The notes below the pieces were generated by a model. It saw only the letters and a program-made list of their open reading frames with translations. It did not search any database and had not been told where the DNA came from. A DNA stretch of 38,375 nt from a virus (Duplodnaviria > Heunggongvirae > Uroviricota > Caudoviricetes), in the IMG/VR virus record IMGVR_UViG_2541047847_000005. One strand, written 5' to 3'. The position numbers and the translations under genes were made by a program. This document shows positions 1,094 to 34,036 of the stretch, one piece after another (position 1 is the stretch's first letter; every line of letters begins with the position of its first letter).

Positions 1094-1423
1094 ATGTCTC
1101 ATCGCCGCTCAACCGTTAAAGGCTCACTCTCTTTTGCCAACCCTACGGTTCGCGCCTGGTTATTCCAGATCCTTGCCGTTGTTGCTGTTGTCGGCATTAT
1201 TGGTTGGTTATTTCACAACACTGTAACGAATCTCAGTAATCGCGGCATAACATCAGGATTTGCTTTTCTTGACCGCGGGGCCGGTTTTGGCATCGTTCAG
1301 CATTTGATTGATTATCAGCAAGGCGACACTTACGGACGCGTTTTTATTGTCGGCCTGCTCAATACGCTACTGGTTTCTGCATTGTGTATTGTGTTCGCTT
1401 CTGTTTTGGGCTTCTTTATCTGA
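1094..1423 (+). pseudogene. yhdX: 5-prime fragment of amino-acid ABC transporter permease (YhdX/AapQ-like), truncated by prophage insertion
   Basis: ATG at 1094 preceded by GAGG; hydrophobic permease-like N-terminus; frame runs into TGA at 1421..1423 after only about 110 codons, and downstream sequence is phage-like. Confidence 0.6.
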
Positions 1424-1430
1424 TCAGACA

Positions 1431-1463
1431 TGAGATAAATGAAGGGGGATCCGTGAGATAAAT
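1431..1463 (+). repeat. two direct copies of TGAGATAAAT (1431..1440 and 1454..1463) at the prophage terminus; candidate transposase end-binding sites
   Basis: exact 10-bp direct repeat spaced 23 bp start to start, 10 bp inside the inferred end. Confidence 0.35.
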
Positions 1464-1616
1464 AACGAATTGGAGTGGGTTAACATGGGTTCTGGTGAAC
1501 AGAACTGAAATTCTTTTCCGCTATACGATAGATAAGTCGGGCATTGAAATCATCCTTCCTGGCAACTTAGAATCGAGTTTGCTGAAACATGACCCGCAAC
1601 AAAAAGGATGATTCCA

Positions 1617-1778
1617 ATGACTACTCAAAACAATAAGCATGATAGCCTGGATTACTCAGAAAAGCCCAAAAGCAAGCACATCGTGACGTTCGAGCGCGAT
1701 TCCGGTAGAAAAGGAGAATCGTCTTCCTCTGCCAATAAAACCACTATGCCGGCAGCCCCTGCCCCAGGGAAAAAATAA
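1617..1778 (+). CDS. hypothetical small hydrophilic protein (53 aa), doubtful
   Basis: ATG at 1617 with AAGGA 9 nt upstream; below the ORF-track cutoff; low-complexity Lys/Ser-rich product; convergent with the gene at 1782..2414. Confidence 0.15.
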   Translation: MTTQNNKHDSLDYSEKPKSKHIVTFERDSGRKGESSSSANKTTMPAAPAPGKK

Positions 1779-1781
1779 ACA

Positions 1782-2414
1782 TCATTCATCGTTCGTTGCA
1801 CGAACGCGCCTGATCTCCACTCTGGCAATCTGATCTGCTGGAATATAGGTTGCCAGAGCTCCCCAGTACTTATCAACCACGCCTTTATACTCTTCCCATT
1901 CGTTACTGCCTGAAGGGCTGCTGTGCGTGACGTAAAGAACCATATCGCCTTTATTCCCCAGGGTAAACGGACCGTTAGGCCACTCTTCAAAGTTCCCTGG
2001 CAGCCGTGACATCATACCGGAACCATCGCGAAGAATCACTCTGACCTCGGTAACGCTGAAGCCTGTTTGATCAAACATTGCCTGCCATGCTGAGCTGGTA
2101 TCGTCAGACCATGAAACATCATTATTCCACAGTAATCTGTACATCCATTTGCGACCGTACCTGCGCCACCACGCACCGCATGTAACGGCACACAGAAGTG
2201 CTGGTGGTGTTGCCAGCCAGGCATTCAGACCTGCCCACATAACAGCCTGGTAAGCCATCATTGCTGTCAGGCCAAAAATCAGCGAAGAAAAAGTCACCTC
2301 AATGGGCTTGTGGTGATCCTTCAGTCCCACATTCGCAATAAAATACCCAATATAGCCACTGGTCAGGGTCACCAGTGTTGCCCATGGCAGATTTAACAAC
2401 GAAACGTCAAACAT
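1782..2414 (-). CDS. membrane protein of unknown function (about 3 TM helices plus about 120-aa soluble C-terminal domain); terminal moron candidate
   Basis: ORF 1782..2492; preferred start is the ATG at 2414 (MFDVSLL...) with AGGGAG 5 nt upstream; hydrophobic segments LVTLTSGYIGYFIANVGL, FSSLIFGLTAMMAYQAVMWAGL, ALLCAVTCGAWW; lies after the early-operon terminator. Confidence 0.55.
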   Translation of the reverse strand: MFDVSLLNLPWATLVTLTSGYIGYFIANVGLKDHHKPIEVTFSSLIFGLTAMMAYQAVMWAGLNAWLATPPALLCAVTCGAWWRRYGRKWMYRLLWNNDVSWSDDTSSAWQAMFDQTGFSVTEVRVILRDGSGMMSRLPGNFEEWPNGPFTLGNKGDMVLYVTHSSPSGSNEWEEYKGVVDKYWGALATYIPADQIARVEIRRVRATNDE

Positions 2415-2452
2415 ATTTTCTCCCTGCATCCTGAATACTAAAGAGAGAGCAT

Positions 2453-2488
2453 AAAAAAAGCACGGTAAGGGGTCTACCGTGCTTTTAT
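2453..2488 (-). terminator. rho-independent terminator ending the early operon
   Basis: stem GCACGGTA / TACCGTGC with 7-nt loop (2460..2482); on the minus-strand transcript it is followed by TTTTTTTAT; on the plus strand by TTTTAT, so possibly bidirectional. Confidence 0.7.
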
Positions 2489-2528
2489 ACAATAAGGAGA
2501 TTTTTGAAAGGACTTTAACAAGCAGGAA

Positions 2529-2927
2529 TTATCTGGATTTGTTAACGTCTTTCGTCTCCTCTGGCAGATCTTCATCAAACAACCTGCCCTGCATCCGATC
2601 CAGTTCTTCTTTTCTGACCCGCTTAACCACGCTGTAGACCCACTGAAGCGAAACACCAAACTTGCGGGCCAGTTCGTGGTGGTTGCGTCCGTTAAACTCC
2701 CTGAAGATTTCCCGGTCGCGCTGACTGACCTTCCATACCATGCCCATCGGGAAATAAACGTTTTGCCCGCCCCAGACCTGCATCATTCGGTTCGCGACGG
2801 CCTGACCAATCTGGTCGGCAATTGCGGGCTCAATATCAATAATCTCGCGAACGGTCTCAGAGGTATGCTGTGCCAGCTCCACCAGGAGTTCCGGCCCTTT
2901 ACTTCGAAACTGATTCAGGTCGCTCAT
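2529..2927 (-). CDS. mor: Mor/C-family transcriptional activator of middle/late genes
   Basis: 132 aa; C-terminal motif FNGRNHHELARKFGVSLQWVYSVVKR matches the Mor/C family helix-turn-helix; last gene of the early operon. Confidence 0.7.
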   Translation of the reverse strand: MSDLNQFRSKGPELLVELAQHTSETVREIIDIEPAIADQIGQAVANRMMQVWGGQNVYFPMGMVWKVSQRDREIFREFNGRNHHELARKFGVSLQWVYSVVKRVRKEELDRMQGRLFDEDLPEETKDVNKSR

Positions 2928-3348
2928 GTTTTACTCCCGCAGCTCTGTGCTGCCACTTCTTCAGTTTCTCAATAACACTGCTTGCCTGTTCAGTATTGAG
3001 CCAGCGCAGGGCGCTGATGCCCGTTTCCCGCTTGATCCACCGCGCTAATGCATTTTCTGAACGGTCACGAACAATGCCGGCAGCAGCCATTTCAAGCCAT
3101 AGCGCACGAATTTTCCTGGACTGCGGATGGTTATCCAGCGGTAAACCGGAGCTGGCTTTTCTGGCTGGTTTAACGCGAAAGCCTTTCTTTTTCATGGATT
3201 CCAGCACGCAGTTTAGTTGTGTGGTATCCATTCCTTTGGTTGAGGCTTTACCGGTCAGCCCCTGTAACATCTGGCGGTAGGTGTCTTCATCCATACCCAG
3301 TTCATTACGGGCAATATGGATAAGCTGTATCAGGCGTTTTTTCTGCAT
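2899..3348 (-). CDS. gemA: GemA-like protein (Mu gp16 family)
   Basis: 149 aa; N-terminal QLIHIARNELGMDEDTYRQML motif typical of GemA; AGGAG 5 nt upstream of ATG; overlaps mor by 29 bp. Confidence 0.6.
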   Translation of the reverse strand: MQKKRLIQLIHIARNELGMDEDTYRQMLQGLTGKASTKGMDTTQLNCVLESMKKKGFRVKPARKASSGLPLDNHPQSRKIRALWLEMAAAGIVRDRSENALARWIKRETGISALRWLNTEQASSVIEKLKKWQHRAAGVKHERPESVSK

Positions 3349-3349
3349 A

Positions 3350-3556
3350 TCATCTCCTTTTTTTCAGTCTGTCGGCAACAATGTCGGTTGCAGCTGGCAG
3401 GGTGACTGGCCAGAACAACATGACGGCGGTCATGTACAGGATGTAATGCGCGGTGTCGTAGTGCCTGCCATAGCCCAGGGAACGATGAAGTCTTGCGCTG
3501 CATGATCCTGCGTACATATACCAGAAAAGAAAACAGACAATGGTTTCAGTAGTCAT
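3350..3556 (-). CDS. small membrane protein, hypothetical
   Basis: ORF 3350..3712, preferred start ATG at 3556 (MTTETIV...) with GGGGAGG upstream; hydrophobic. Confidence 0.4.
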   Translation of the reverse strand: MTTETIVCFLFWYMYAGSCSARLHRSLGYGRHYDTAHYILYMTAVMLFWPVTLPAATDIVADRLKKRR

Positions 3557-9329: not shown

Positions 9330-10241
9330 TTATGCCTCCAGCCCGTTAATCTGTGGCGTCGGCTCAGTCAGCCATGAAGGCGCGGCATTGCCTGTTGGCT
9401 CATCCGGCAGGTCAAATGTGGAGCGCAGGCTACGCGCTGTGCTTTCCAGTTGACAGACCAGGCCTGCCATGAAGTCTCTGGGGGTATCAATCATGTTTTC
9501 AGCACAATATGCGCACAGCGTCTCAAAAGCGCTGGACAGTCGAACGGCGATGGCAGATTCCGCCTCAACCGCTAACGCGGTCACTTCTGCCCGCAGTTTC
9601 TTCACCTCTTCATCAGGCTCAGGTGGCTGAATACGGGATTTCTTCTCCAGTCTGGTGGAGAGTGAGTCTATTTTTTCATTTTTGTCGGCGAGTACGCGCT
9701 GTTGTGCTGCGTTGGTTTCGCGCGCTTCGCGCAGGGCCTGACGCAATTCACGTACTGACATGCGATCAACATCGTCAAGCGTCAGTCCGGCAACTGTGCC
9801 ACCGTCGGCCAGTTCAGCAAGGTCGTCGTCATCTTCAGCAACAAGTTCAAATAATTTTGCCTTACCTAAAAGCGACAACGTTGTCGCTTTTGGCTCTAGT
9901 TTTGGTGAAAGGTATTTCAAAGATGCTTTCATCATTCGTTGTGCTGCGCGCACATGCAGACCAAGTTGTTCTTCTACAATTCCAACAAAGTCCCCGTGAG
10001 GTTCATTTTCTTTGAGAATAATAAGTCGTTTACCTGCTTCCAGCATGGCCTCAGCGCTCTGTGCCATATAAAACCGAGCCTCATGAACTATGCGATCACG
10101 CTCATAGGGCTGACCATCGCCAAACTGCTGCATGATCTCCATACGATGCTGTGTCATGGCGTTCAGACTGACATTGAGATCATCCGACAGCGGTACCTCG
10201 GCGTTCAGTTCAGTGTTAATCGGTGATTTGGTGCGTCCCAT
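9330..10241 (-). CDS. hypothetical early protein (303 aa), acidic and coiled-coil rich
   Basis: AAGGAG 6 nt upstream of ATG at 10241; lies between the regulators and the transposase. Confidence 0.5.
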   Translation of the reverse strand: MGRTKSPINTELNAEVPLSDDLNVSLNAMTQHRMEIMQQFGDGQPYERDRIVHEARFYMAQSAEAMLEAGKRLIILKENEPHGDFVGIVEEQLGLHVRAAQRMMKASLKYLSPKLEPKATTLSLLGKAKLFELVAEDDDDLAELADGGTVAGLTLDDVDRMSVRELRQALREARETNAAQQRVLADKNEKIDSLSTRLEKKSRIQPPEPDEEVKKLRAEVTALAVEAESAIAVRLSSAFETLCAYCAENMIDTPRDFMAGLVCQLESTARSLRSTFDLPDEPTGNAAPSWLTEPTPQINGLEA

Positions 10242-10251
10242 TTATTACTCC

Positions 10252-10560
10252 TTACAAACGACTACCTGAAATGACACGTTGGTTGATTTCGTTAATGCGA
10301 TCCTGTGCACGTGCCATCTCGTTACTGTGGGCCATAGCGATCTGCAGTAACTGGATGCCCGGCGCGAAACGCCCGTTTTCCAGTTTCAGGGCCAACCCTT
10401 CTTCAATGAGGGTGTTGAGTGCCCGGTTGATGTTTGCCGGTGACTCGTGCAGTGCTGCCGCCAGTTCACCGTTGGAAATACCGTTCAGGGCATGACCGCG
10501 CAGCGCTTTGAGTACCCGGAGGATGCGACTGCCGGAGCTTGAAACATTCGTCTTACTCAT
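10252..10560 (-). CDS. winged-helix DNA-binding protein (putative early regulator)
   Basis: ORF 10252..10566, preferred start ATG at 10560; segment ILRVLKAL...ISNGELAAALHESPANINRALNTLIEEGLA looks like a wHTH. Confidence 0.45.
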   Translation of the reverse strand: MSKTNVSSSGSRILRVLKALRGHALNGISNGELAAALHESPANINRALNTLIEEGLALKLENGRFAPGIQLLQIAMAHSNEMARAQDRINEINQRVISGSRL

Positions 10561-10612
10561 CTGCATACCTCTTTTGCGATATGTGATAACCTTTTACAAA
10601 GACTCAAAATCT

Positions 10613-10801
10613 TCAGGCTGCCTGAGCTGTTGATTTCAGCCCCAACTTCACGGCGATTTCATGGGATTTACCGTAACGGGCTTTGGTCTGCCCATTGAGA
10701 ACGCGGTATACCTCATTGCGGTTGTAGCCGTTTTCTTCTGCCCAGCGGGTGAAAGTGATCCCGCGCTGGCGGAAGAGAGCTTTGACTTGTTCTGCAGTCA
10801 T
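10613..10801 (-). CDS. ner: Ner-like DNA-binding protein (Ner/Nlp family), first gene of early operon
   Basis: 62 aa; pattern ALFRQRGITFTRWAEENGY...LNGQ...G..IA..LG resembles Mu Ner / E. coli Nlp; AGGAG 6 nt upstream of ATG at 10801. Confidence 0.7.
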   Translation of the reverse strand: MTAEQVKALFRQRGITFTRWAEENGYNRNEVYRVLNGQTKARYGKSHEIAVKLGLKSTAQAA

Positions 10802-10901
10802 CGTTGTCTCCTTTGTTGATGCAATGATGTTTGCCTTATGTGTGATAGATTATGGTGCAGATTACCTCACCAGTCAACTTAAAGAGTGCAGAAAAACTCA
10901 C
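10802..10901. promoter_or_regulatory. divergent promoter/operator region between ner-like and repressor genes
   Basis: 100-bp AT-rich gap between divergent regulator genes; contains three GTGCAGA / TGCAATGA-like repeats. Confidence 0.4.
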
Positions 10902-11240
10902 ATGATCGGGTTACGTATTAAAGAAGAAAGAGAGCGTCTATCTCTTACACAGCAAGGGTTGGCTGATGCTATAGGTGTGGCAAAGAGAACTTTCATTGAT
11001 TGGGAAAAAGATCGCACTTCTCCTACTGCAGTGCAGTTATCTGCACTATCAGAAATCGGTGTAGATATTTTGTATGTAGTTACTGGGGTGCGGAGTCAGC
11101 CTGTTGTTGCACCTTATGTGTCACAAGAAAAGAAAGAGTTAATGGATGCATTCGACGAAATGAGCCCCGAACAACGGAGGGCAATTCTTGAGGTCGGCAA
11201 AGTCTTCATTCAACCCAAACCAAGCAAACTCGCAGGCTGA
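10902..11240 (+). CDS. XRE-family HTH repressor (prophage immunity repressor)
   Basis: ORF 10749..11240, preferred start ATG at 10902; N-terminal LRIKEERERLSLTQQGLADAIGVAKRTFIDWEKDRTSP is a Cro/C1-type HTH; no LexA-like peptidase domain; low GC. Confidence 0.7.
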   Translation: MIGLRIKEERERLSLTQQGLADAIGVAKRTFIDWEKDRTSPTAVQLSALSEIGVDILYVVTGVRSQPVVAPYVSQEKKELMDAFDEMSPEQRRAILEVGKVFIQPKPSKLAG

Positions 11241-11326
11241 TTTTGACCTGGACACAAAGGACAGGTGGTTGATCTGGATGCTTTCAGAAAACATCGCCAG
11301 TGACATAGTGGAAGTTGTTTGGTTTA

Positions 11327-11357
11327 CCGGAAAGCATTGTGCTTTCCGGTTTTGTTT
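11327..11357 (+). terminator. rho-independent terminator downstream of repressor gene
   Basis: perfect 10-bp stem CCGGAAAGCA / TGCTTTCCGG with 3-nt loop followed by TTTTGTTT; abuts the stop codon of the convergent methyltransferase gene. Confidence 0.6.
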
Positions 11358-12121
11358 CAGAAGTTGCAGATTACCAGTTCACGGCGCGGCGTGGATTTCC
11401 CCGCCAGACTGTAGTTGATGTTCACTGTCTGTATGTTCAGTCCAGTGAACACCTCGCGCATCTGTGGGATATCGTTCACCGAAATTATCATTTTTCCTCT
11501 GATGCACCGGGCCAGCTCTGCCAGCCGCGAGTAGTTCCCTTCAGGAAAATCCACACCATAGCCTTCCGTACCCAGGTACGGTGGGTCGCAGTAGAACAGT
11601 GTGTGCGGACGATCATAACGCTCAATGCACTGTTGCCAGTCCATGTGTTCTATGACTGTTCTGGAAAGCCGCAGGTGTGCTGCTGACAGTTCTTCTTCAA
11701 TACGCAGCAGGTTGAAGCGTGGCGGGGATGTGGTGGAGGTACCGAAGCTGTGCTCTGCCACCTTGCCGCCAAACGCCTGCTTCTGAAGGTAGTAGAACCG
11801 TGCCGCACGCTGGATATCCGTCAGTGTTTCTTCCGGGGTGATCTGCAGCCATTTGTAGATCTGACGGCTGACCAGCGCCCATTTGAACTGGCGGACAAAT
11901 TCTTCCAGGTGATGCTTTACCACCCGGTACAGATTCACCAGTTCACCGTTGATATCATTGATGACTTCGATCTTGCCGGGTGTCTTAAGAAAATAGAGCG
12001 CTGCTGCCCCACAAAACGGCTCCACATAACATTCATGCGCCGGAAACAGCGGCAGGATGTGTTTTGCCAGGCGACGTTTGCCACCAATCCATGGAACGAT
12101 GGGTAATGTCTTCATTTTCAT
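11357..12121 (-). CDS. orphan Dam-class (D12) N6-adenine DNA methyltransferase
   Basis: 254 aa; motif I FCGAAALYF and motif IV DPPY; no adjacent restriction endonuclease gene. Confidence 0.85.
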   Translation of the reverse strand: MKMKTLPIVPWIGGKRRLAKHILPLFPAHECYVEPFCGAAALYFLKTPGKIEVINDINGELVNLYRVVKHHLEEFVRQFKWALVSRQIYKWLQITPEETLTDIQRAARFYYLQKQAFGGKVAEHSFGTSTTSPPRFNLLRIEEELSAAHLRLSRTVIEHMDWQQCIERYDRPHTLFYCDPPYLGTEGYGVDFPEGNYSRLAELARCIRGKMIISVNDIPQMREVFTGLNIQTVNINYSLAGKSTPRRELVICNF

Positions 12122-12312
12122 AATCTGTAAGCCTTTTACAATTATTAAAAATATGGCAGGCTAGTCTGGTCTCGCGAGACTGACTGAACCTCGGTCGGCT
12201 CACAGCCACTTCTGTGGGACGATGGCCAGCCCGGTGGGTCCGAAGCACCGGGCTGGTCGTTCTTTCATGATGCGGCAGGGATAGTGGGATTTCTGTTAAT
12301 GTGGTTTAGGGA

Positions 12313-12528
12313 TTATCCGGGGCGATTTTCTGACCTTATCCGGTCCAGGGCATAAGTAATACCTTCTGCAAAAACAGAAGTATCAAACTGCTTTTGTATT
12401 CCCTGAAAATGAAAAGCGGCACGACAGACACTCAGTTCTCCGCGATGTAACCGGATAATATCTTCCAGAACATTGTTCACTGCTTCAGCACGGCGCTGAT
12501 GTTCTGTTAACGTTAATCGGGGATTCAT
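12313..12528 (-). CDS. hypothetical small protein (71 aa)
   Basis: ATG at 12528 with AAGGAG 6 nt upstream; about 190 bp upstream of the methyltransferase gene. Confidence 0.5.
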   Translation of the reverse strand: MNPRLTLTEHQRRAEAVNNVLEDIIRLHRGELSVCRAAFHFQGIQKQFDTSVFAEGITYALDRIRSENRPG

Positions 12529-12529
12529 G

Positions 12530-12931
12530 ATGCACTCCTTAAATGATGATTTTTATGCACTCACCGGCAAAATATTCTGCCGATTACTGAACACGCATCC
12601 GGCACCTCAGGTTTTGATTTATTCTGGTTTTTTCGATATCCCGGACCAGGTTGATCACGACCAGAAAAAGTGCCGGTATTTTATTGATACGCTGATATGG
12701 CTTCGGGATAACAGCTATATTCGTTACTCTCAGTTGCTGGCTGTGGGAGCGGCTGATGTCGTCCTCACGGAAAAAACGCTCCGTCTGCTCAATGCCACGC
12801 CGACCCTTCTGCAGCCCCGGCCCGCACCATTTAAAGAGTCACTTCTGGATGCAGTAAAAACCGGTGAAAATGCAGTCATCGCTGAATGCGTATCCCGGAT
12901 TATGCGTTACGTGTTTAATGAACGTAAGTGA
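12530..12931 (+). CDS. hypothetical protein (about 133 aa)
   Basis: ORF 12527..12931; about 400 bp open on plus strand with no competing ORF; ATG at 12530 has GGGGA 6 nt upstream; start overlaps the start of the divergent 71-aa gene. Confidence 0.4.
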   Translation: MHSLNDDFYALTGKIFCRLLNTHPAPQVLIYSGFFDIPDQVDHDQKKCRYFIDTLIWLRDNSYIRYSQLLAVGAADVVLTEKTLRLLNATPTLLQPRPAPFKESLLDAVKTGENAVIAECVSRIMRYVFNERK

Positions 12932-13650
12932 GGTTTATCCGCTGTCTGCATAATCCCGATAGCCAGTGCGAGGGGAAGTAATTCCGGGGAAACTCTTTCA
13001 AACAGCGACTCCCATTCTCCTCTCGCCATCACTCTGTCCAGCCCGCCCCCCAGTTGCATTTCAGCAATCTTCCTGATTTCCCGGAACAACGCCGCTTTGA
13101 TCTCTTCGTGCTCAGCTTTATTTTCCGGTGTCAGAATGTATTCGTCGAAGAACCGGGGAGGCTGGTTAACGGGGAGCGTGTTCACCGGGATGTGTTCCTG
13201 TTTCCCGTACTTCGGGGCAGAAAAACATTCTGTTGGCTGACCGGTGAGTTTACGTAGCTCCTTCATGAGCAGCTCCTGATCGTAAACTGTCATCAGTGCC
13301 GCAATGGTGGCATGCAGTGCATCGGGCAGTATCCAGGGTTGCCGGCCCGTGGGGCATATAACATCCAGCAGCTCATTCGTCCGACAGATACGCTCCTCGC
13401 CGTATGACAACAGGCCCTGTCCCGTGTATTCCTCTAGCCTGATCACTGTGCCACCCCGTGGCTTCTGCCAGGTCGTCAGATCTTCGCCATTCATACGGCG
13501 CTCATTCTCCACGTCAGCAGCATCGACAATGACGCTGTTTCCGAGTTCCTGTTTCACCATCTCTTCTATCCGCGCCAGTACGTAACTTTTACCGCTGCCC
13601 ACAGGACCGGACACAGTGACAGTGATGACCGGATTCAGTGTGTGCGTCAT
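12907..13650 (-). CDS. P-loop NTPase/kinase-like protein of unknown function
   Basis: 247 aa; Walker A GPVGSGKS at residues 15-22; GAGGAG 8 nt upstream of ATG; not a recognisable Mu core gene. Confidence 0.6.
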   Translation of the reverse strand: MTHTLNPVITVTVSGPVGSGKSYVLARIEEMVKQELGNSVIVDAADVENERRMNGEDLTTWQKPRGGTVIRLEEYTGQGLLSYGEERICRTNELLDVICPTGRQPWILPDALHATIAALMTVYDQELLMKELRKLTGQPTECFSAPKYGKQEHIPVNTLPVNQPPRFFDEYILTPENKAEHEEIKAALFREIRKIAEMQLGGGLDRVMARGEWESLFERVSPELLPLALAIGIMQTADKPHLRSLNT

Positions 13651-13780
13651 ATCGTATTCTCCTCTGTGAATAATTCATCGTTTATCCTGCACATCCCGTA
13701 TCCCCGGCTCTCTTAACGCGCTTTAAAATCCTTCGCGCCCTGTATTTGTGATGCTGTCTCCACCAGACAAGGAGACACAC

Positions 13781-14131
13781 ATGAAAAACCTGAAAAAATT
13801 CATTCCCCCTGTTAAAAAACCTCGCCTCAGCGGCTGGCTGCTGACCTCAGTGCTGTTGCTGGGCACCATCGCTCTGGTCTCGCCACAGCAGTTGCCTGTT
13901 GTGATCTACAAGCTGGCACTCATCACGCTGGCAGCAGTGCTGGGTTACTGGCTTGACCGTTCGCTCTTCCCCAAAGCCCGTCCCGGTCAGTACCTGAAAC
14001 ATGACGACAGGCTGATGGCTGAAGGGCGTTTCCCGGTACAGACCGGCCTTCACCTGGTGTTTTCTGCTGCGTTAATCCGCCGTGCACTGATTGTTGCAGC
14101 GGTCTGTCTGGCTGTTGCGATGGGGCTTTAA
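13781..14131 (+). CDS. holin-like membrane protein (first gene of lysis cassette)
   Basis: ORF 13748..14131, preferred start ATG at 13781 with GGAGA 5 nt upstream; about 3 hydrophobic segments; immediately precedes the endolysin gene. Confidence 0.5.
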   Translation: MKNLKKFIPPVKKPRLSGWLLTSVLLLGTIALVSPQQLPVVIYKLALITLAAVLGYWLDRSLFPKARPGQYLKHDDRLMAEGRFPVQTGLHLVFSAALIRRALIVAAVCLAVAMGL

Positions 14132-14133
14132 TC

Positions 14134-14871
14134 ATGAACTGGCCGCAGATCACCTGGATTGTATGCATGTCCCTGAAACTGGCTTTCGAAGCCTTTAGGG
14201 TCTTCATCAGAACCGAACGCCTGTCAGTCCGCGCCGGGACCTTTCTGGTTCATATGGCACGGGTATTCTTTGTCGCAATGTTGCTCTGGTGTGGCGGCTT
14301 CTTCAGTCAGGCCCGCGCAGCGCAGCCTCCGCAGGCAGCGCTGCAGTATCGCGATGATGTGATCCGTAATGCCCGGCTTGAATGGGGACTGTCTGCGCCG
14401 GTGGCTGATTTCGCTGCGCAACTGCATCAGGAAAGCGGCTGGCGACCTGATGCGATCTCGCCGGTTGGCGCTCAGGGACTGGCGCAGTTCATGCCCGCCA
14501 CCGCCGACTGGATAAGTCAGTTGATGCCGGGGCTTAACAGCCGTGAGCCATTTAATCCGGCATGGGCCATCCGGGCGCTGGTCAGCTATGACCGCTGGCT
14601 GTGGCAGCGCGTCAGCGCCGCCAGTGACTGCGAGCGTATGGCCATGACACTGTCGGGCTATAACGGTGGTCTGGGCTGGGTACAGCGGGACAGGCGGCTT
14701 GCATCACAAAAAGGGCTGGACAGCACCCGCTGGTTTGGTCATGTCGCCACGGTGAATGCCGGACGCAGCACTGCCAGCTGGCGGGAGAACCGTCATTATC
14801 CCCAGCGCATCCTGTTCACGCTGGCCCCGCGTTATCTCTCATGGGGAGGGGCAAGCTGTGTGGGTACGTAA
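14134..14871 (+). CDS. endolysin, lytic transglycosylase (SLT domain) with N-terminal signal or SAR sequence
   Basis: motif HQESGWRPDAISPVGAQGLAQFMP typical of SLT catalytic region; hydrophobic MARVFFVAMLLWCGGFFSQA near N-terminus; alternative start ATG at 14254. Confidence 0.8.
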   Translation: MNWPQITWIVCMSLKLAFEAFRVFIRTERLSVRAGTFLVHMARVFFVAMLLWCGGFFSQARAAQPPQAALQYRDDVIRNARLEWGLSAPVADFAAQLHQESGWRPDAISPVGAQGLAQFMPATADWISQLMPGLNSREPFNPAWAIRALVSYDRWLWQRVSAASDCERMAMTLSGYNGGLGWVQRDRRLASQKGLDSTRWFGHVATVNAGRSTASWRENRHYPQRILFTLAPRYLSWGGASCVGT

Positions 14872-15511
14872 GTTACGGTCGCTGCCGTGGCGGGTCATTA
14901 TGCTGGCCATTCTCCTGAACACCTTCCTGCTGGCGATCTGGTGGCTGGGATACAGCACAGGCCACGACCGGGCCTCCGCTGACGGTCAGGCGGCGCTCAG
15001 CCGCCTGCAGGCGGATTTTGACGGATACCGGGCAGAACAGGCCCGGCGTGAGGTGGCGGCGTTGCGCGCATGGTCTGAGCGTTATCAGGAGCAGGTAGCC
15101 GCCGGGCAACGGGCTGAAGCTGGTTATCTTGAGCAGATTGCTCAACTGGAGGACCAGAACAAACAACTACAGGGGCAAATTAACGATGTCACACAGCGCT
15201 GGATTGATGAAAAAGGTAAGAGCCATCCCATTGAGTGCGTGTTTACTCGCGGTTTCGTGCGCCAGTACAACGCCGCACTCGGATACGACAACGCATCCGT
15301 CGACACCGGTCATTCAGACTCAGTTGCCGCCGCTGGCACCGGCACTGGCGCAGCGACCGGGCAACCTGAAACCGCTGACGCCCGGTTACGCAATTCGGGT
15401 GTCTCCCAGCTTGACGTCCTTGCCAACATCATCGACAACGCAGGGCAATGTCGTCGCTGGCGAAACCAGATAAACGCGCTACTGGATGAACGGGAAGGAT
15501 TACAGAAATGA
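14858..15511 (+). CDS. i-spanin (Rz-like)
   Basis: ORF 14756..15511, preferred GTG start at 14858 with GGGGAGGG upstream; N-terminal TM segment then coiled-coil-like periplasmic domain. Confidence 0.6.
   Translation: MWVRKLRSLPWRVIMLAILLNTFLLAIWWLGYSTGHDRASADGQAALSRLQADFDGYRAEQARREVAALRAWSERYQEQVAAGQRAEAGYLEQIAQLEDQNKQLQGQINDVTQRWIDEKGKSHPIECVFTRGFVRQYNAALGYDNASVDTGHSDSVAAAGTGTGAATGQPETADARLRNSGVSQLDVLANIIDNAGQCRRWRNQINALLDEREGLQK
15207..15473 (+). CDS. o-spanin (Rz1-like lipoprotein) embedded in i-spanin gene
   Basis: ORF 15129..15473 in the +1 frame inside the i-spanin gene; from ATG at 15207 gives MKKVRAIPLSACLLAVSC lipoprotein signal followed by a Pro/Thr-rich mature part. Confidence 0.55.
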   Translation: MKKVRAIPLSACLLAVSCASTTPHSDTTTHPSTPVIQTQLPPLAPALAQRPGNLKPLTPGYAIRVSPSLTSLPTSSTTQGNVVAGETR

Positions 15512-15834
15512 CACTGCAGGTTGAATTCTGGACGGTGGTGAGTTTTTTGCTCACCTTCATGGGGTTTGTGGGAGGGCTCGCCAAATGGTTGTTCAGTAAA
15601 ACAGAAGAACGCCAGGCGGCACGATTCGCCTCCCTTGAGCAGGCCCTGCAACAGTCCGCCTCCAACTGGGGCGAACTGGAAAAAGAATTTATGCGATTTA
15701 AAGCGGATTTACCGCTGAATTATGTCCGTCGCGAGGATTATATCCGTGGCCAGACAGTCATCGAGGCCAAACTGGACGCACTCTACAACAAACTGGAAGT
15801 GGTACAGCAGTACCGCAATACCGGAGGTCAATAA
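15508..15834 (+). CDS. membrane-anchored hypothetical protein (108 aa)
   Basis: N-terminal TM segment then charged helical region; position between lysis genes and terminase. Confidence 0.45.
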   Translation: MTLQVEFWTVVSFLLTFMGFVGGLAKWLFSKTEERQAARFASLEQALQQSASNWGELEKEFMRFKADLPLNYVRREDYIRGQTVIEAKLDALYNKLEVVQQYRNTGGQ

Positions 15835-16145
15835 TGGTCGATATTACCCGGGTACGCCGCGAATCCCTGCGCTGGAGTCTGCTGGTTGCCCTGAACAAAA
15901 CCCGCCCTTATACCGCCAGCGAGACGCTGCTGCTGGAAGTGTCCCGCGCCATCTACCCGGACACCACGCAACTGGAGCTGCGCCGTGAGCTTGATTACCT
16001 GGCAGATCGCAAGATGGTGGAACTGGAGAAGAGGCCTTCCGGTGACTGGTTTGCCGATCTGAGTCGCCTTGGTGTGGATATTGTGGAATACACCGTGGAA
16101 TGCGGCCCCGGTATTGCCCGCCCGGAAAAATACTGGAGTGAGTGA
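15834..16145 (+). CDS. hypothetical protein (103 aa)
   Basis: start overlaps stop of upstream gene; position just before terminase genes. Confidence 0.45.
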   Translation: MVDITRVRRESLRWSLLVALNKTRPYTASETLLLEVSRAIYPDTTQLELRRELDYLADRKMVELEKRPSGDWFADLSRLGVDIVEYTVECGPGIARPEKYWSE

Positions 16146-27000: not shown

Positions 27001-27097
27001 CATCACAGGGGCTCCGGCCCCTTCTTCTTAATCTCCTTTAATATCCGTCACGCGCTTCTCCCGACATACTGCCCTGAACTTACACAGGAGCACAATC

Positions 27098-27590: not shown

Positions 27591-30500
27591 ATGTCGGGAC
27601 AGTTTTCAGTCGGCGTTGTTATCGGCGGGATGATTGGCAGCACATTCCGTTCTGCAATGAGCGGTACCCGCCGTGCGCTTGATTCCCTGAGCGATACCTC
27701 ACGCCGCCTGCAGGAACGTCAGAACGCTTTAACCCGTGCAACAGAACGTTATGGTCAACTGGGTTCTTCCCGGATGCAGCATCTCAACAGCGAGCTGCTG
27801 CGGGTAAGCCGCACCATGGAGCAAATTGAGCGCCAGCAGCGCCGTCTGTCAGCGGCATCCGCTACCAGTGATGCGCTGAAAGCTAACCGCATGGCGCTGT
27901 ATGGTCAGGGGATTGAAGCGTATGGCATGGCTCAGACTGTTTATCATACGGTTTCCCCTGCCGTTCAGCAGTCCATGTTTTTTCAGGACAAAATGATTGA
28001 TATGTCGATCACCGCAAAATATGACAATAAAACGCGGGATGCACTTGCCGGACAGATAAAAGGCTGGGCGCTTAAATACAATCAGTATCAGGATGAGCTG
28101 CAGGAGGCGGTGGGTTCACTCATCAGCGACAATATTGATAATGTGTCAGATATCGGTTTTCTGATGCCGGATATTGCCCGCGCGGCAACGGCAACACGCA
28201 CGTCTGCTCAGGACTGGGCAAAAGTGGCCGCAGTCTGGCAAAACTCCCTGAAAGGTGCGGCCAGAGATTTTGGTGCCGTTCAGAATATTATGGCTTATGC
28301 CGGTGACCAGGGGTCATTTGAAATCCCGGATCAGGTCAAGTGGATGCAGTCCCTGGCCCCAATGATGGCGGGTATTGCCAGTGGAAAAGAGGCTGTTGCT
28401 GAAATCGGGGCCAGTCTCCAGATAGCAAAAATCGGTGCAGGTTCCACCGACGAAGCAGCCAATAATTTTAAAAACTTTCTTACCAAAATTTTTGCCCGCG
28501 ATACTCAGAAACAGTTTGCTGATCTGGGTATTGATTTGCAGGGATCTATTGCGAGTTATAAAGCTGCGGGGATCTCTCCGATTGAAGGGATGTTGAGTGT
28601 TATAGAACGTTACCTCAATGCCAAAAGCCCCGAAGCGCTGGCCGGCTTCAAATCCGCCATGAAAATAAAGAATGATACGGCAAGAGATGAGGCACTTCAG
28701 GCTCTGGCGAAAAACTTTGGTCTGGGTGATATGTTCGCGGATATGCAGGTCATGGCATTTATCCGCCCGATGCTGGCCAACATGGACAGATATCGCGAGA
28801 TCCGCGCCGGTGCTCTCAGGGCTGCGGATAACGATTTGCTTGCCAGTGCTTATGATCAGCGGCTGAAATCTCCCCTTGAAGCCACTAAAACACTTATGGT
28901 CAGCAGTCGCGATCTGGCAATTACGCTGGGCGATCAATTAGCTCCATCTTTTATTTCTTTGACTCAGGAACTGCTTCCACTCATTCAGGGGGCAAAACAC
29001 TGGGTAGCGACTCACCCGCAATTTGTCAGTGGGGCTTTTAAGCTCATCAGTGCGCTCCTTGCGATTAAGATAGCGACTGTTGGTCTCAAACTGGGGCTGA
29101 ATCTCCTTATTTCCCCCTTTGTGAACGTCTGGAAAACTACTGTTTTACTCCGGACCAACTGGCATCGACTGGCTACCGCACTCGGAGAAGGTGGCAAATT
29201 ACGCTGGCTTGTCACTGGATTCAGCCGACTGACCAGCGGAGGACTGAAACTCAGCAAAGTTCTGGCGGGCAGCCTCGTTCGCGGTTTTATGAGCGCTGCA
29301 CGTGCCGTTCTCTGGATTGGGCGAGCGCTGATGATGAATCCCATCGGTCTCGTTATCACCGCTGTCGCGGCAGCAGCTTACCTTATCTACCGCAACTGGG
29401 GGGCTGTCAGTGGTTGGTTTAAACAGCGCTGGGCTGACATTCAGGAAGCCTTTAACGGCGGCATTGTGGGAATTGGTAAGTTGCTGATTAACTGGTCGCC
29501 GGCAGGCCTGCTCTATAAAGCCTTTGCGGCTGCGCTGAAATATTTCGGCGTTGCTCTGCCGGCAAAGTTCACCGACTTCGGTGGCCATCTTATCGACGGT
29601 CTGATTAACGGTATCAAAAACAAATGGGGGTCGCTCAAATCCAGTGTAACCGGAATGGGTGACAGCATCAGTAGCTGGTTTAAACAGTGCTGGGCTGACA
29701 TTCAGGAAGCCTTTAACGGCGGCATTGTGGGAATTGGTAAGTTGCTGATTAACTGGTCGCCGGCAGGCCTGCTCTATAAAGCCTTTGCGGCTGCGCTGAA
29801 ATATTTCGGCGTTACTCTGCCGGCAAAGTTCACCGACTTCGGTGGCCATCTTATCGACGGTCTGATTAACGGTATCAAAAACAAATGGGGGGCGCTCAAA
29901 TCCAGTGTAACCGGAATGGGTGACAGCATCAGTAGCTGGTTTAAACAGTGCTGGGCTGACATTCAGGAAGCCTTTAACGGCGGTATCGCGGGAACTGGTA
30001 AGCTGCTGATTAACTGGTCGCCGGCAGGTCTGCTCTATAAAGCCTTTGCAGCTGCGCTGAAATATCTTGGTGTTGATCTGCCGGCAAAGTTTACCGACTT
30101 CGGTGGCCATCTTGTCGATGGTCTGATTAACGGTATCAAAAACAAATGGGAGTCGCTCAAATCCAGTGTAACCGGAATGGGTGACAGCATCAGTGGCTGG
30201 TTCAGCGAAAAGCTGGGCATTCATTCGCCGAGCCGCGTGTTTATGGGCTTTGGTGACAATATCGCGCAGGGGGCCGCCATTGGCCTGCAGCGGACCACTC
30301 CGCTTGTAGCTCTGGCCGGGCAGCGAATGGCCAGTGAACTGCTCCCCAGAATGCCCGTGAGCATTCAGGGGCCAGAAATACGGGATAACACTTCAGGTGT
30401 TCGCTTCAGTATGCCGTTGCCCGATATCAATGGGTTTATGTCGTCTGCTAAAAATGCGATCGGAGCCGTAATCAATAGTTTGTCTTCCATGCCCGCTATT

Positions 30501-30803
30501 CCGCTCTCCACCCGGGCATCGATTTTACCAGGGCAACGTCTGGCAAATGAGATGACACCGGATGTTCCCCGTATCCCCTCGCCTGAAATCCTGGCTGCCG
30601 GATATTCAGGCCGTGGTGCAGCTGCAACCGGCGGTGGAACGTCTGGTGGTATCCAGGTCAGCTTTAATCCTCAGTTTTTCCTCAATGGCAGGGAAACCAC
30701 AGCGCCTGCAGGACTGACTGGTGCCCTGAATATGAGTCTGCATGAGCTGGAAAAAATGCTGGAGCGTCTGCTGGCTCAGAAACAACGTAAGGAGTACCGC
30801 TGA
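27591..30803 (+). CDS. tail tape measure protein with internal tandem triplication
   Basis: 1070 aa; GGAGG upstream; long helical protein after the chaperone genes; contains 3 near-identical 87-aa repeats. Confidence 0.9.
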   Translation: MSGQFSVGVVIGGMIGSTFRSAMSGTRRALDSLSDTSRRLQERQNALTRATERYGQLGSSRMQHLNSELLRVSRTMEQIERQQRRLSAASATSDALKANRMALYGQGIEAYGMAQTVYHTVSPAVQQSMFFQDKMIDMSITAKYDNKTRDALAGQIKGWALKYNQYQDELQEAVGSLISDNIDNVSDIGFLMPDIARAATATRTSAQDWAKVAAVWQNSLKGAARDFGAVQNIMAYAGDQGSFEIPDQVKWMQSLAPMMAGIASGKEAVAEIGASLQIAKIGAGSTDEAANNFKNFLTKIFARDTQKQFADLGIDLQGSIASYKAAGISPIEGMLSVIERYLNAKSPEALAGFKSAMKIKNDTARDEALQALAKNFGLGDMFADMQVMAFIRPMLANMDRYREIRAGALRAADNDLLASAYDQRLKSPLEATKTLMVSSRDLAITLGDQLAPSFISLTQELLPLIQGAKHWVATHPQFVSGAFKLISALLAIKIATVGLKLGLNLLISPFVNVWKTTVLLRTNWHRLATALGEGGKLRWLVTGFSRLTSGGLKLSKVLAGSLVRGFMSAARAVLWIGRALMMNPIGLVITAVAAAAYLIYRNWGAVSGWFKQRWADIQEAFNGGIVGIGKLLINWSPAGLLYKAFAAALKYFGVALPAKFTDFGGHLIDGLINGIKNKWGSLKSSVTGMGDSISSWFKQCWADIQEAFNGGIVGIGKLLINWSPAGLLYKAFAAALKYFGVTLPAKFTDFGGHLIDGLINGIKNKWGALKSSVTGMGDSISSWFKQCWADIQEAFNGGIAGTGKLLINWSPAGLLYKAFAAALKYLGVDLPAKFTDFGGHLVDGLINGIKNKWESLKSSVTGMGDSISGWFSEKLGIHSPSRVFMGFGDNIAQGAAIGLQRTTPLVALAGQRMASELLPRMPVSIQGPEIRDNTSGVRFSMPLPDINGFMSSAKNAIGAVINSLSSMPAIPLSTRASILPGQRLANEMTPDVPRIPSPEILAAGYSGRGAAATGGGTSGGIQVSFNPQFFLNGRETTAPAGLTGALNMSLHELEKMLERLLAQKQRKEYR
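29415..30197 (+). repeat. 3 tandem copies of a 261-bp in-frame repeat inside the tape measure gene
   Basis: repeat units start at 29415, 29676 and 29937 (TGGTTTAAACAG...); each encodes WFKQ.WADIQEAFNGGI...KNKW..LKSSVTGMGDSIS with few substitutions. Confidence 0.9.
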
Positions 30804-33634: not shown

Positions 33635-33688
33635 GCTTTTTAAACGCCTTTAATATCAGCGTTCCCGCACGGGGGCAATACTGCCCCC

Positions 33689-34036
33689 ATGAAAACAACC
33701 TCAGTATTCTGGCAACCAGCCCTGCAGGCTCCCGGCGAAATTGTCCGGGGGCTGGATGATATCCGGCAGGCGATTCAAATTATCCTGCGGACTCCCCGCG
33801 GCAGCGACCCGCATCGCCCGGAGTTCGGCAGCAATCTGCATCTTTATATCGACTGGCCTGTAGACCGGGCCATTCCGCATGTGGTGCGCGAATCCGTCGA
33901 TGCCATCCGGCGCTGGGAGCCCCGCTGCCAGCTTATGTCAGTTAAACCCGCCGTCGACGGCGAACATCTTACGCTCCGGGTGAGCTGGAAAGGCTCAGAC
34001 GGACAGACCCGGACTCAGGAGCTGCTATGGCGCTGA
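33689..34036 (+). CDS. baseplate protein W (gp25-like)
   Basis: 115 aa directly upstream of and overlapping the J-like gene. Confidence 0.6.
   Translation: MKTTSVFWQPALQAPGEIVRGLDDIRQAIQIILRTPRGSDPHRPEFGSNLHLYIDWPVDRAIPHVVRESVDAIRRWEPRCQLMSVKPAVDGEHLTLRVSWKGSDGQTRTQELLWR

Follow-up and report, generated by a model that had tools for sequence, protein, structure and literature searches.

A 38,375-nucleotide stretch of phage DNA (IMG/VR record IMGVR_UViG_2541047847_000005, Caudoviricetes), referred to here at its full length as the window, carries a gene for a 247-residue protein with a Walker A motif, called below the P-loop gene and the P-loop protein. We identified this open reading frame (ORF) as a genuine gene that is kept by purifying selection in a BcepMu-like transposable prophage. 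The protein that it encodes is a mosaic in which an N-terminal mini P-loop domain of about 76 residues (module A) is followed by a helical module D, a proline-rich segment U, and a second helical module E; modules D and E are exchanged among relatives, and one related phage has the modules as adjacent genes of their own. The protein belongs to no characterised family. Our preferred reading, which is tentative and to which we give a probability of about 0.35, is that of a late-expressed, nucleotide- or phosphate-binding counter-defence accessory protein.

Mosaic architecture of the P-loop gene

The gene is judged real because its product matches phrog_3787 over the full length (residues 1-247 to profile positions 1-242 of 242, E = 3.5e-164), because the ratio of nonsynonymous to synonymous substitution rates (dN/dS) among 10 distinct alleles is 0.24 overall and points to purifying selection in all 4 parts (A, 0.33; D, 0.18; U, 0.17; E, 0.14), and because the locus was identified in 584 of 5426 complete Escherichia coli genomes, or about 1 in 9, among them the sequence type 131 (ST131) reference strains JJ1886 and EC958. 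The holin and transglycosylase genes of the same prophage type were found in 636 of these genomes and are also present in JJ1886 and EC958. The motif GPVGSGKS at residues 15-22, the strong Shine-Dalgarno sequence (the 5' flank reads ...CACAGAGGAGAATACGAT-ATG, with AGGAG 8 nt before the ATG), and the 25-bp overlap with a convergent gene (12907-12931) had all been pointed out in an earlier note on this DNA and were confirmed. That note was silent on the strand, which is minus, and had given the convergent gene a length of 133 residues, which is corrected here to 134.

A HMMER search of 1.84 billion representative proteins returned 62 matches, most of them to residues ~1-76 only. The ~76-residue unit is joined in these relatives to unrelated C-terminal sequences from 0 to about 290 residues long, and stand-alone homologues of 74-90 aa occur in many unrelated phages, the distant ones aligning to the first ~75 positions of the phrog_3787 profile. 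Family members with the N-terminal domain keep G....GK[ST] in all but 3 cases. When 26 diverse N-terminal domains were aligned, G20 and K21 proved invariant at identities of only 28-54% to the window protein, G15, I28, L72, and E74 are near-invariant, E50 is invariant or nearly so, with the pair E50-R51 seen in most rows, and W61 and P64 are widely conserved as a Trp..Pro element. Since the motif is kept family-wide and G20 and K21 are invariant at such low identities, the Walker A is not a chance match.

The layout of module A is a strand, the Walker A, a helix, a strand, a short helix with Glu-Arg, a loop with Trp..Pro, and a strand ending in Glu, and from established knowledge of the fold we infer a correspondence to roughly the first 3 strands of a kinase- or GTPase-type P-loop sheet. 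The acidic stretch remarked on earlier (IVDAADVENERR) does lie at residues 41-52, but a Walker B role for it did not hold, as D43 is not conserved and the conserved residues are E50-R51, L72, and E74. The strand at residues 68-74 with E74, together with E50-R51, could be the candidate for that role. A full-length AlphaFold (AF2) model built on a shallow alignment was unusable (predicted local distance difference test score, pLDDT, 47); it contained strands at 8-14, 41-46, and 69-76 and otherwise helices. The helix after the Walker A spans residues 21-36 in that model and 21-39 in a better model of the N-terminal domain, which has no strands. The Walker A lies between a strand and a helix, with the strand (8-14) taken from the low-confidence full-length model only. 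A complete alpha/beta core of at least 5 strands and ~150 residues was not identified, the conserved unit and the stand-alone homologues both being far shorter, and the P-loop unit is thus not of kinase or NTPase size. The fold assignment rests on the motif and on secondary structure, and structural comparison returned no match to solved P-loop proteins.

Module A shares with P-loop nucleoside triphosphatases (NTPases), including nucleoside-monophosphate kinases and the Walker A region of ABC ATPases, the succession of strand, GxxGxGKS, helix, and second strand, and its hydrophobic strand ending in a conserved Glu resembles their Walker B. It differs from them in having only ~76 residues and about 3 strands, without the later strands, the lid, the Q-loop, LSGGQ, or a base-specificity motif. 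A similar small size and strand-P-loop-helix core are found in 2 laboratory-made minimal P-loop proteins, 6c2u ("phosphate-loop protein") and 9jix ("de novo designed ATPase PL2x4_2"), which were among the best PDB sequence matches; the best match with the single sequence was a de novo designed ATPase (E = 0.037), and with a profile the 2 entries gave E = 3.4e-4 and 7.1e-4. Because both are designed consensus sequences, these matches reflect the Walker A consensus and not descent, whereas the PHROG 3787 family is natural and phage-borne and has its own Glu-Arg and Trp..Pro elements.

The ~170 residues that follow, previously described as having no recognisable motif, consist instead of modules recombined among relatives, which join module A to the BLAST-defined modules B, C, D, E, F, G, H, I, and J in many arrangements. 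Modules D and E each have their own invariant residues (D, V, R, W, L, and L in module E), and 2 relatives, P0058 and P0063, have module D with module A absent. Segment U is possibly a flexible linker, given that model confidence is lowest up to residue ~170. A metagenomic BcepMu-like phage (L012) has 3 consecutive genes of 88, 161, and 76 aa in the position of the P-loop gene: the first is module A alone, the second starts 4 bp before the first ends and matches modules B-C-D of the fused proteins (E = 2e-36), and the third is homologous to module E (E = 1e-9 with a relative, 1e-3 with window residues 191-225). Profiles of modules D and E found no relatives in the PDB. The stretch LLPLALAIGIM was considered as a membrane tail anchor and rejected, being too short and not kept hydrophobic in other E modules. 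Variable sets of small independent modules, with the same modules occurring elsewhere as separate genes, are also said to characterise the polyvalent proteins of phages and conjugative elements, reportedly described by Iyer et al. in 2017; those proteins are large and have recognisable enzymatic or anti-restriction domains, whereas forms of the present protein are 141-364 aa long and have no recognisable module.

Profile- and structure-based homology searches, proposed earlier as a check, gave the full-length PHROG 3787 match but no characterised family or fold. Scans of the P-loop protein, its neighbours, and 10 relatives against Pfam, NCBIfam, and PADLOC returned only sub-threshold matches in the Walker A region, those of the P-loop protein covering ~30-45 residues. 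Its Pfam matches were Zeta_toxin (11.8 bits, cut-off 22.3), ABC_tran (12.5 bits, cut-off 25, with LSGGQ absent from the 247-aa sequence), and KAP_NTPase (13.8 bits, cut-off 20, residues 4-43 only), and its PADLOC matches were weak and local, with a best E of 0.0098. Whether run with the single sequence or with profiles of modules A, D, and E, PDB searches went no further than generic Walker A matches; the profile matches included ABC B-family proteins (E = 5e-5), cytidylate kinase (E = 2.4e-4), UreG, and EF-Tu, over the Walker A, the helix, and the next strand (~30-40 residues). No homology to a housekeeping phage kinase was found in Pfam, PHROG, NCBIfam, or PDB sequence searches, and the original description stands: the gene lies in an accessory region of the phage, and its product has a P-loop motif and no known function. 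Truncated or frameshifted copies (P0016, P0018, P0023, P0087, P0100, and P0101) carry the RefSeq/NCBI names "ABC transporter ATPase," "KAP family NTPase," or "P-loop NTPase fold protein," the first being the RefSeq name of the 141- and 158-aa forms; no match to the families so named reached the cut-off, and the first 2 names over-reach for such fragments and are untrustworthy even if the gene proves inert.

A word-based protein search returned close E. coli relatives only, and natural E. coli forms include a 182-aa protein without residues ~53-124 and a 141-aa protein without the C-terminal half. A genome scan with a narrower alignment identified 1 species-representative genome, Citrobacter braakii, and tblastn of 3 family members against isolated phages found almost nothing except PhiKM. 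An Rfam scan of positions 10000-16000 matched no RNA family. A literature search on the family accessions returned no papers, and no Pfam family, structure, or literature was found for the P-loop gene. The family itself is already catalogued as PHROG 3787, unannotated and of unknown function, in an entry without the domain limits, stand-alone forms, or module shuffling found here; by the tools and literature search used, no description yet exists of the mini-domain, of its occurrence as a stand-alone protein, or of module shuffling accompanied by gene fission.

Predicted late promoter and control region

All BcepMu-like loci that were recovered have the start of the P-loop family gene 131 bp from the divergent holin gene; they come from E. 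coli, Citrobacter braakii, and metagenomes, with holin identities as low as 64%. When the divergent region of 7 loci with diverged flanking sequence was aligned, 3 invariant blocks stood out: a 14-bp palindrome, TTAAAGsGCnTTAA; GCAGGAT on the P-loop strand; and ATGCTG on the holin strand. The predicted -10 hexamers on the 2 sides lie at equal distances from the palindrome centre (Table 1). Related palindromes with the same spacing to the hexamers CATACT and AATACT were identified upstream of the tail-chaperone/tape-measure genes (27028-27041) and of a baseplate gene (33640-33653), and the palindrome-type pattern has 11 matches in the window against 1.9 expected, a number reached in 0 of 100 shuffles. 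No sigma-70 consensus promoter was found upstream of the P-loop gene. Mor of phage Mu binds a dyad centred at -43.5 of Mu Pm, a promoter without a -35 element (PMC4287176). As far as sequence can tell, the region of the P-loop gene has the Mor/C late-promoter layout, with a dyad ~43 bp upstream of the predicted start, a weak -10, and no -35. RefSeq annotates a gene of the Mor transcription activator family in the syntenic prophage of E. coli K56-43-un, which by gene length and order corresponds to window ORF 2529..2927.

Because the palindrome and the hexamers at 30 nt are invariant, the layout is repeated at tail and baseplate genes, and no sigma-70 promoter is present, we infer a bidirectional, activator-dependent late promoter in which one palindrome would serve both the holin gene and the P-loop gene. 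The P-loop gene is probably co-transcribed with the 71-aa and Dam genes, since both are closely downstream of it in the related locus L009. Mu com-mom and the Mor/C promoters offer the closest likeness, with a dyad ~42-43 bp upstream of the predicted start, a weak -10, no -35, and a DNA-modification gene in the late unit. The window differs from com-mom in having one palindrome for 2 divergent promoters, a modification gene of the Dam and not the Mom type, and no Com-like zinc-finger protein, and its activator site is a prediction. The P-loop protein was itself considered as the late transcription activator and rejected, as it has no DNA-binding motif and a variable C-terminus, is missing from one BcepMu-like record, and exists beside the separate Mor-family gene annotated by RefSeq.

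Further features of the control sequences were recorded. A candidate late-promoter regulon, defined by TTAAA-N4-TTTAA exactly 30 nt from a -10-like hexamer, comprises 13684-13755, 27028-27076, and 33640-33688. Within 13748-13783, the holin ORF contains a further in-frame ATG at 13751 (MLSPPDKETHM...), 10 codons upstream of the annotated start at 13781, and this ATG is also found in Citrobacter (L007); a 6-bp inverted repeat, GTCTCC-N9-GGAGAC, is invariant in the 7 loci and takes in the Shine-Dalgarno sequence for the downstream holin start. The arrangement might be that of a dual-start holin/antiholin under the control of a hairpin; the other possibility is that the -10 hexamer and discriminator account for the conservation. 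Within 33677-33691, the ATG of the baseplate gene (33689) lies only 6 nt past its predicted -10, AATACT, so that either its mRNA is leaderless or the true start codon is further downstream. A related palindrome, TGAAAGGACTTTAA, is located at 2505-2518, just past the presumed Mor-family gene, and a hairpin with a T-run (CACGGTA..TACCGTG TTTTTTT) was found within 2440-2518; the region looks like an early-operon terminator beside a possible activator site for the last left-end gene.

Prophage setting and neighbouring genes

The region of the P-loop gene is 95% identical to Escherichia phage PhiKM of the genus Bcepmuvirus, and positions 12250-13750 are identical to the K56-43-un prophage (NZ_CP053079.1). 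The window and that prophage are not colinear throughout, gene positions at the mor end being offset by 221 bp, and the tape-measure gene, marked as broken by RefSeq in K56-43-un, is one intact ORF of 1070 aa in the window (27591-30803). The gene order in the window is an early operon on the minus strand with helix-turn-helix (HTH) regulators at 10252..10566 and 10613..10801, an HTH repressor-like gene on the plus strand, Dam, the 71-aa gene, the 134-aa gene, the P-loop gene, and then the rightward late genes for holin, SLT transglycosylase, spanin, and terminase.

Table 1. Positions in the window of the P-loop gene, its parts, its control sequences, and adjacent genes (aa, amino acids)
Feature	Position	Strand	Basis and remarks
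P-loop gene coding sequence	12907..13650	-	247 aa plus stop, ATG start, complete; PHROG 3787 member; architecture A-D-U-E (ORF list, PHROG match, dN/dS)
Module A, residues 1-76, mini P-loop domain	13423..13650	-	HMMER matches, alignments, stand-alone homologues; only part conserved family-wide
Walker A GPVGSGKS, residues 15-22	13585..13608	-	Motif conservation
Conserved Glu50-Arg51	13498..13503	-	Alignments
Third strand, residues 68-74 (TVIRLEE), ending in Glu74	13429..13449	-	Walker-B-like hhhxhxE; L72 and E74 near-invariant; model strand 69-76
Module D, residues 85-137 (LPDALHATIAALMTVYDQELLMKELRK), helical	13240..13398	-	C-terminus of P0024/P0028, L012 161-aa protein, P0058/P0063
Segment U, residues 138-190, Pro-rich, then helix start	13081..13239	-	pLDDT 25-28 at residues 141-170; only in close relatives
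Module E, residues 191-247 (GGLDRVMARGEWESLF...), helical	12910..13080	-	Homologous to L012 76-aa protein and C-terminal parts of P0030, P0035, P0036
Shine-Dalgarno AGGAG	13659..13663	-	GGA kept in 7/7 aligned loci
CAGGAT, predicted -10 of P-loop gene	13684..13689	-	Begins exactly 30 nt from palindrome centre, 7/7 loci
14-bp palindrome TTAAAGCGCGTTAA	13713..13726	.	Centre 13719.5; predicted Mor/C-family late activator site, common to holin and P-loop promoters; 7 loci
GATGCT, predicted -10 of holin/late lysis operon	13750..13755	+	Begins exactly 30 nt from palindrome centre, 7/7 loci
134-aa gene, phrog_2266	12527..12931	+	Converges on P-loop coding sequence, 25-bp overlap at 3' end
71-aa gene, phrog_4490	12313..12528	-	Next gene, same direction as P-loop gene
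Dam-family DNA adenine methylase	11357..12121	-	TIGR00571 117 bits, above cut-off; last gene of leftward unit

The 134-aa protein has a 53%-identical relative labelled DUF2513, and dN/dS of its gene drew on too few differences to be informative. In L012, a 28%-identical homologue and the last module gene converge and overlap by 45 bp, and the association of this gene with the P-loop gene is old. The 134-aa family (phrog_2266, DUF2513-like) recurs in this slot, always antiparallel to the P-loop gene (the window; L012, 8965-9531; L024, 6627-6944; L027), with 2 diverged copies in L024 and an internal stop in the L027 allele. The 134-aa gene is missing from L009, L021, and L023, where a clean deletion has left a remnant of 17-18 codons and the 247-aa P-loop gene is intact. 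A truncated 158-aa form that keeps modules A and D was identified in L008, without the 71-aa gene or Dam, and likewise in L015-L020. No neighbour is therefore obligatory. In L008 (E. coli MSB1_4I, 1336-3452), the Dam/71-aa/134-aa block is replaced by 3 plus-strand genes, for a 153-aa HTH protein with weak RmrA-like matches and for proteins of 328 and 193 aa of unknown function, and because of this replacement the stretch from the repressor to the P-loop gene is regarded as a cargo-exchange site. None of the genes found in this slot matches a known defence protein in PADLOC. The P-loop gene is itself dispensable, because one BcepMu-like record, labelled Klebsiella phage KP12, has Dam present and the P-loop gene absent.

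Proposed function and rival explanations

Family genes were also identified in unrelated phages. In 3 lambdoid contigs (L010, L049, and L050), the gene has HNH/terminase on one side and, on the other, small genes where a lysis cassette usually sits, a holin Pfam match being found in L010 only, whereas larger and lytic phages have the stand-alone domain among small early or replication-region genes. An Acb2/Tad1-hairpin gene is located 250 bp downstream of the family gene in L049 and about 4 kb away in L005/L006, Lar was found 2 genes downstream in L045 and 2 kb downstream in L046, and an orphan N6/N4 DNA methylase lies directly upstream in L041. These counter-defence neighbours are suggestive, in small numbers. 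In 2 unrelated metagenomic phage contigs, a DUF3307 gene was also observed upstream of the stand-alone mini P-loop gene, directly in L014 (3273-3719) and at a distance of 1.4 kb in L013 (4264-4653).

On the counter-defence reading, the P-loop protein would be made from a Mor/C-dependent promoter during lytic growth, together with the lysis and structural proteins, and not in the lysogen. The P-loop of module A would bind a nucleotide or another phosphate-bearing ligand, probably as an oligomer because module A supplies only about 3 strands of a P-loop sheet, and the variable helical modules would dock it onto variable partners. Its role would be counter-defence, directed against restriction or signalling and exerted during lytic growth or after it; the protein might help to protect progeny DNA or be carried into the next host. 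Support for such a role comes from Acb2/Tad1, Lar, and the orphan methylase near family genes in unrelated phages and from Dam in the window unit. Several observations weigh against it. Of roughly a dozen contexts, about 6 contain counter-defence genes, which are frequent in the accessory regions of phages; the stand-alone domain lies beside early or replication genes in lytic phages, so that family members differ in timing; anti-signalling proteins are not usually expressed late; CAGGAT makes a weak -10-like hexamer, and the start of transcription is a prediction; 3 members have GKN in the motif; and the literature search returned no biochemical or genetic data on any family member. A bolder version, which we regard as unlikely, is that module A is a natural free-standing "half" P-loop domain of ~75 residues that would be oligomeric and bind phosphate ligands without the rest of the NTPase fold, acting as a nucleotide-sequestering or nucleic-acid-binding counter-defence protein either alone or with exchangeable targeting modules.

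The earlier note had raised a toxin or abortive-infection role. Small P-loop proteins are known in several defence and toxin systems, and an effector that kills or arrests the cell or blocks superinfection, with a small neighbour as antidote or sensor, would be in keeping with the sub-threshold matches to Zeta_toxin, AAA_21/AbiEii, SngB, and HerA in the Walker A region, with the recurrence of the convergent phrog_2266 overlap at 28% identity in L012, and with variable C-termini of the kind expected from an arms race. All of these matches, however, fall below curated cut-offs and cover about 30-45 residues, and no gene of the slot matches PADLOC. Natural variants without the 134-aa, 71-aa, or Dam genes argue that no neighbour is an obligate antitoxin, since intact 247-aa alleles occur without the 134-aa gene and the 158-aa form of L008 occurs without the 71-aa gene or Dam. 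A defence protein would be needed in the lysogen, but the P-loop protein is unlikely to be made there, given a predicted promoter that depends on an activator and also serves the lysis operon; further, the stand-alone domain is found in lytic phages. With no PADLOC or Zeta-toxin match above threshold, dispensable neighbours, and a promoter predicted to be late, the suggestion gained no support, and we consider such an effector quite improbable. The chance is equally slim that the P-loop protein is an accessory subunit of the phage Dam, analogous to Mu com-mom, that loads or directs Dam on progeny DNA. The transcription direction shared with Dam, the short gaps in L009, a predicted late promoter as for Mu mom, and the orphan methylase directly upstream in the unrelated L041 would suit this role, but L008 and L015-L020 keep the gene without Dam, KP12 has Dam without the gene, and most stand-alone homologues have no methylase nearby.

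A helper in lysis timing or late morphogenesis, co-regulated with holin and endolysin and modulating lysis or DNA packaging in an NTP-dependent way, is unlikely. The constant 131-bp distance from the divergent holin gene in BcepMu-like phages, the activator site predicted to be common to both, and the 3 lambdoid contigs with the gene between the lysis-cassette position and HNH/terminase point in its direction. Against these stand the KP12 record without the gene, the stand-alone domain among early or replication genes in lytic phages, the absence of a membrane segment, and C-terminal modules that are freely swapped or deleted (141-, 158-, 247-, and 291-aa forms), a poor fit with a conserved partner such as holin or terminase; further, the gap between lysis and terminase genes is a classic site of accessory genes ("morons"). 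Least probable of all is a true small enzyme, whether a nucleotide or other kinase or an NTPase modifying nucleotides or DNA, with module A as its catalytic core. The GPxGSGKS form is typical of nucleoside-monophosphate kinases and ABC ATPases, the profile matches to cytidylate kinase and ABC B-family proteins extend over the Walker A, helix, and next strand, and an 82-aa homologue is called thymidylate/uridylate kinase in one metagenomic record. Yet the ~76-residue unit is less than half of any known kinase or NTPase core and has no lid, substrate-binding domain, or ABC signature, no Pfam or NCBIfam model matches at cut-off, no structural match was found, and the Mg-binding Ser/Thr is lost in 3 members. 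Judged by its sequence, the P-loop protein appears not to be a housekeeping kinase, and a toxin role appears unsupported.

If the half P-loop version of the counter-defence reading were true, anti-defence proteins would gain a new structural class, and the laboratory minimal P-loop prototypes would gain a living counterpart. If the 76-residue domain binds nucleotides alone, it would be the smallest natural P-loop unit known to us and would bear on the origin of the fold. Further, the conserved palindrome provides a simple handle on late gene control in BcepMu-like phages, and, if the P-loop protein is a counter-defence factor, its exchangeable modules and split-gene form would provide a ready map for dissection.

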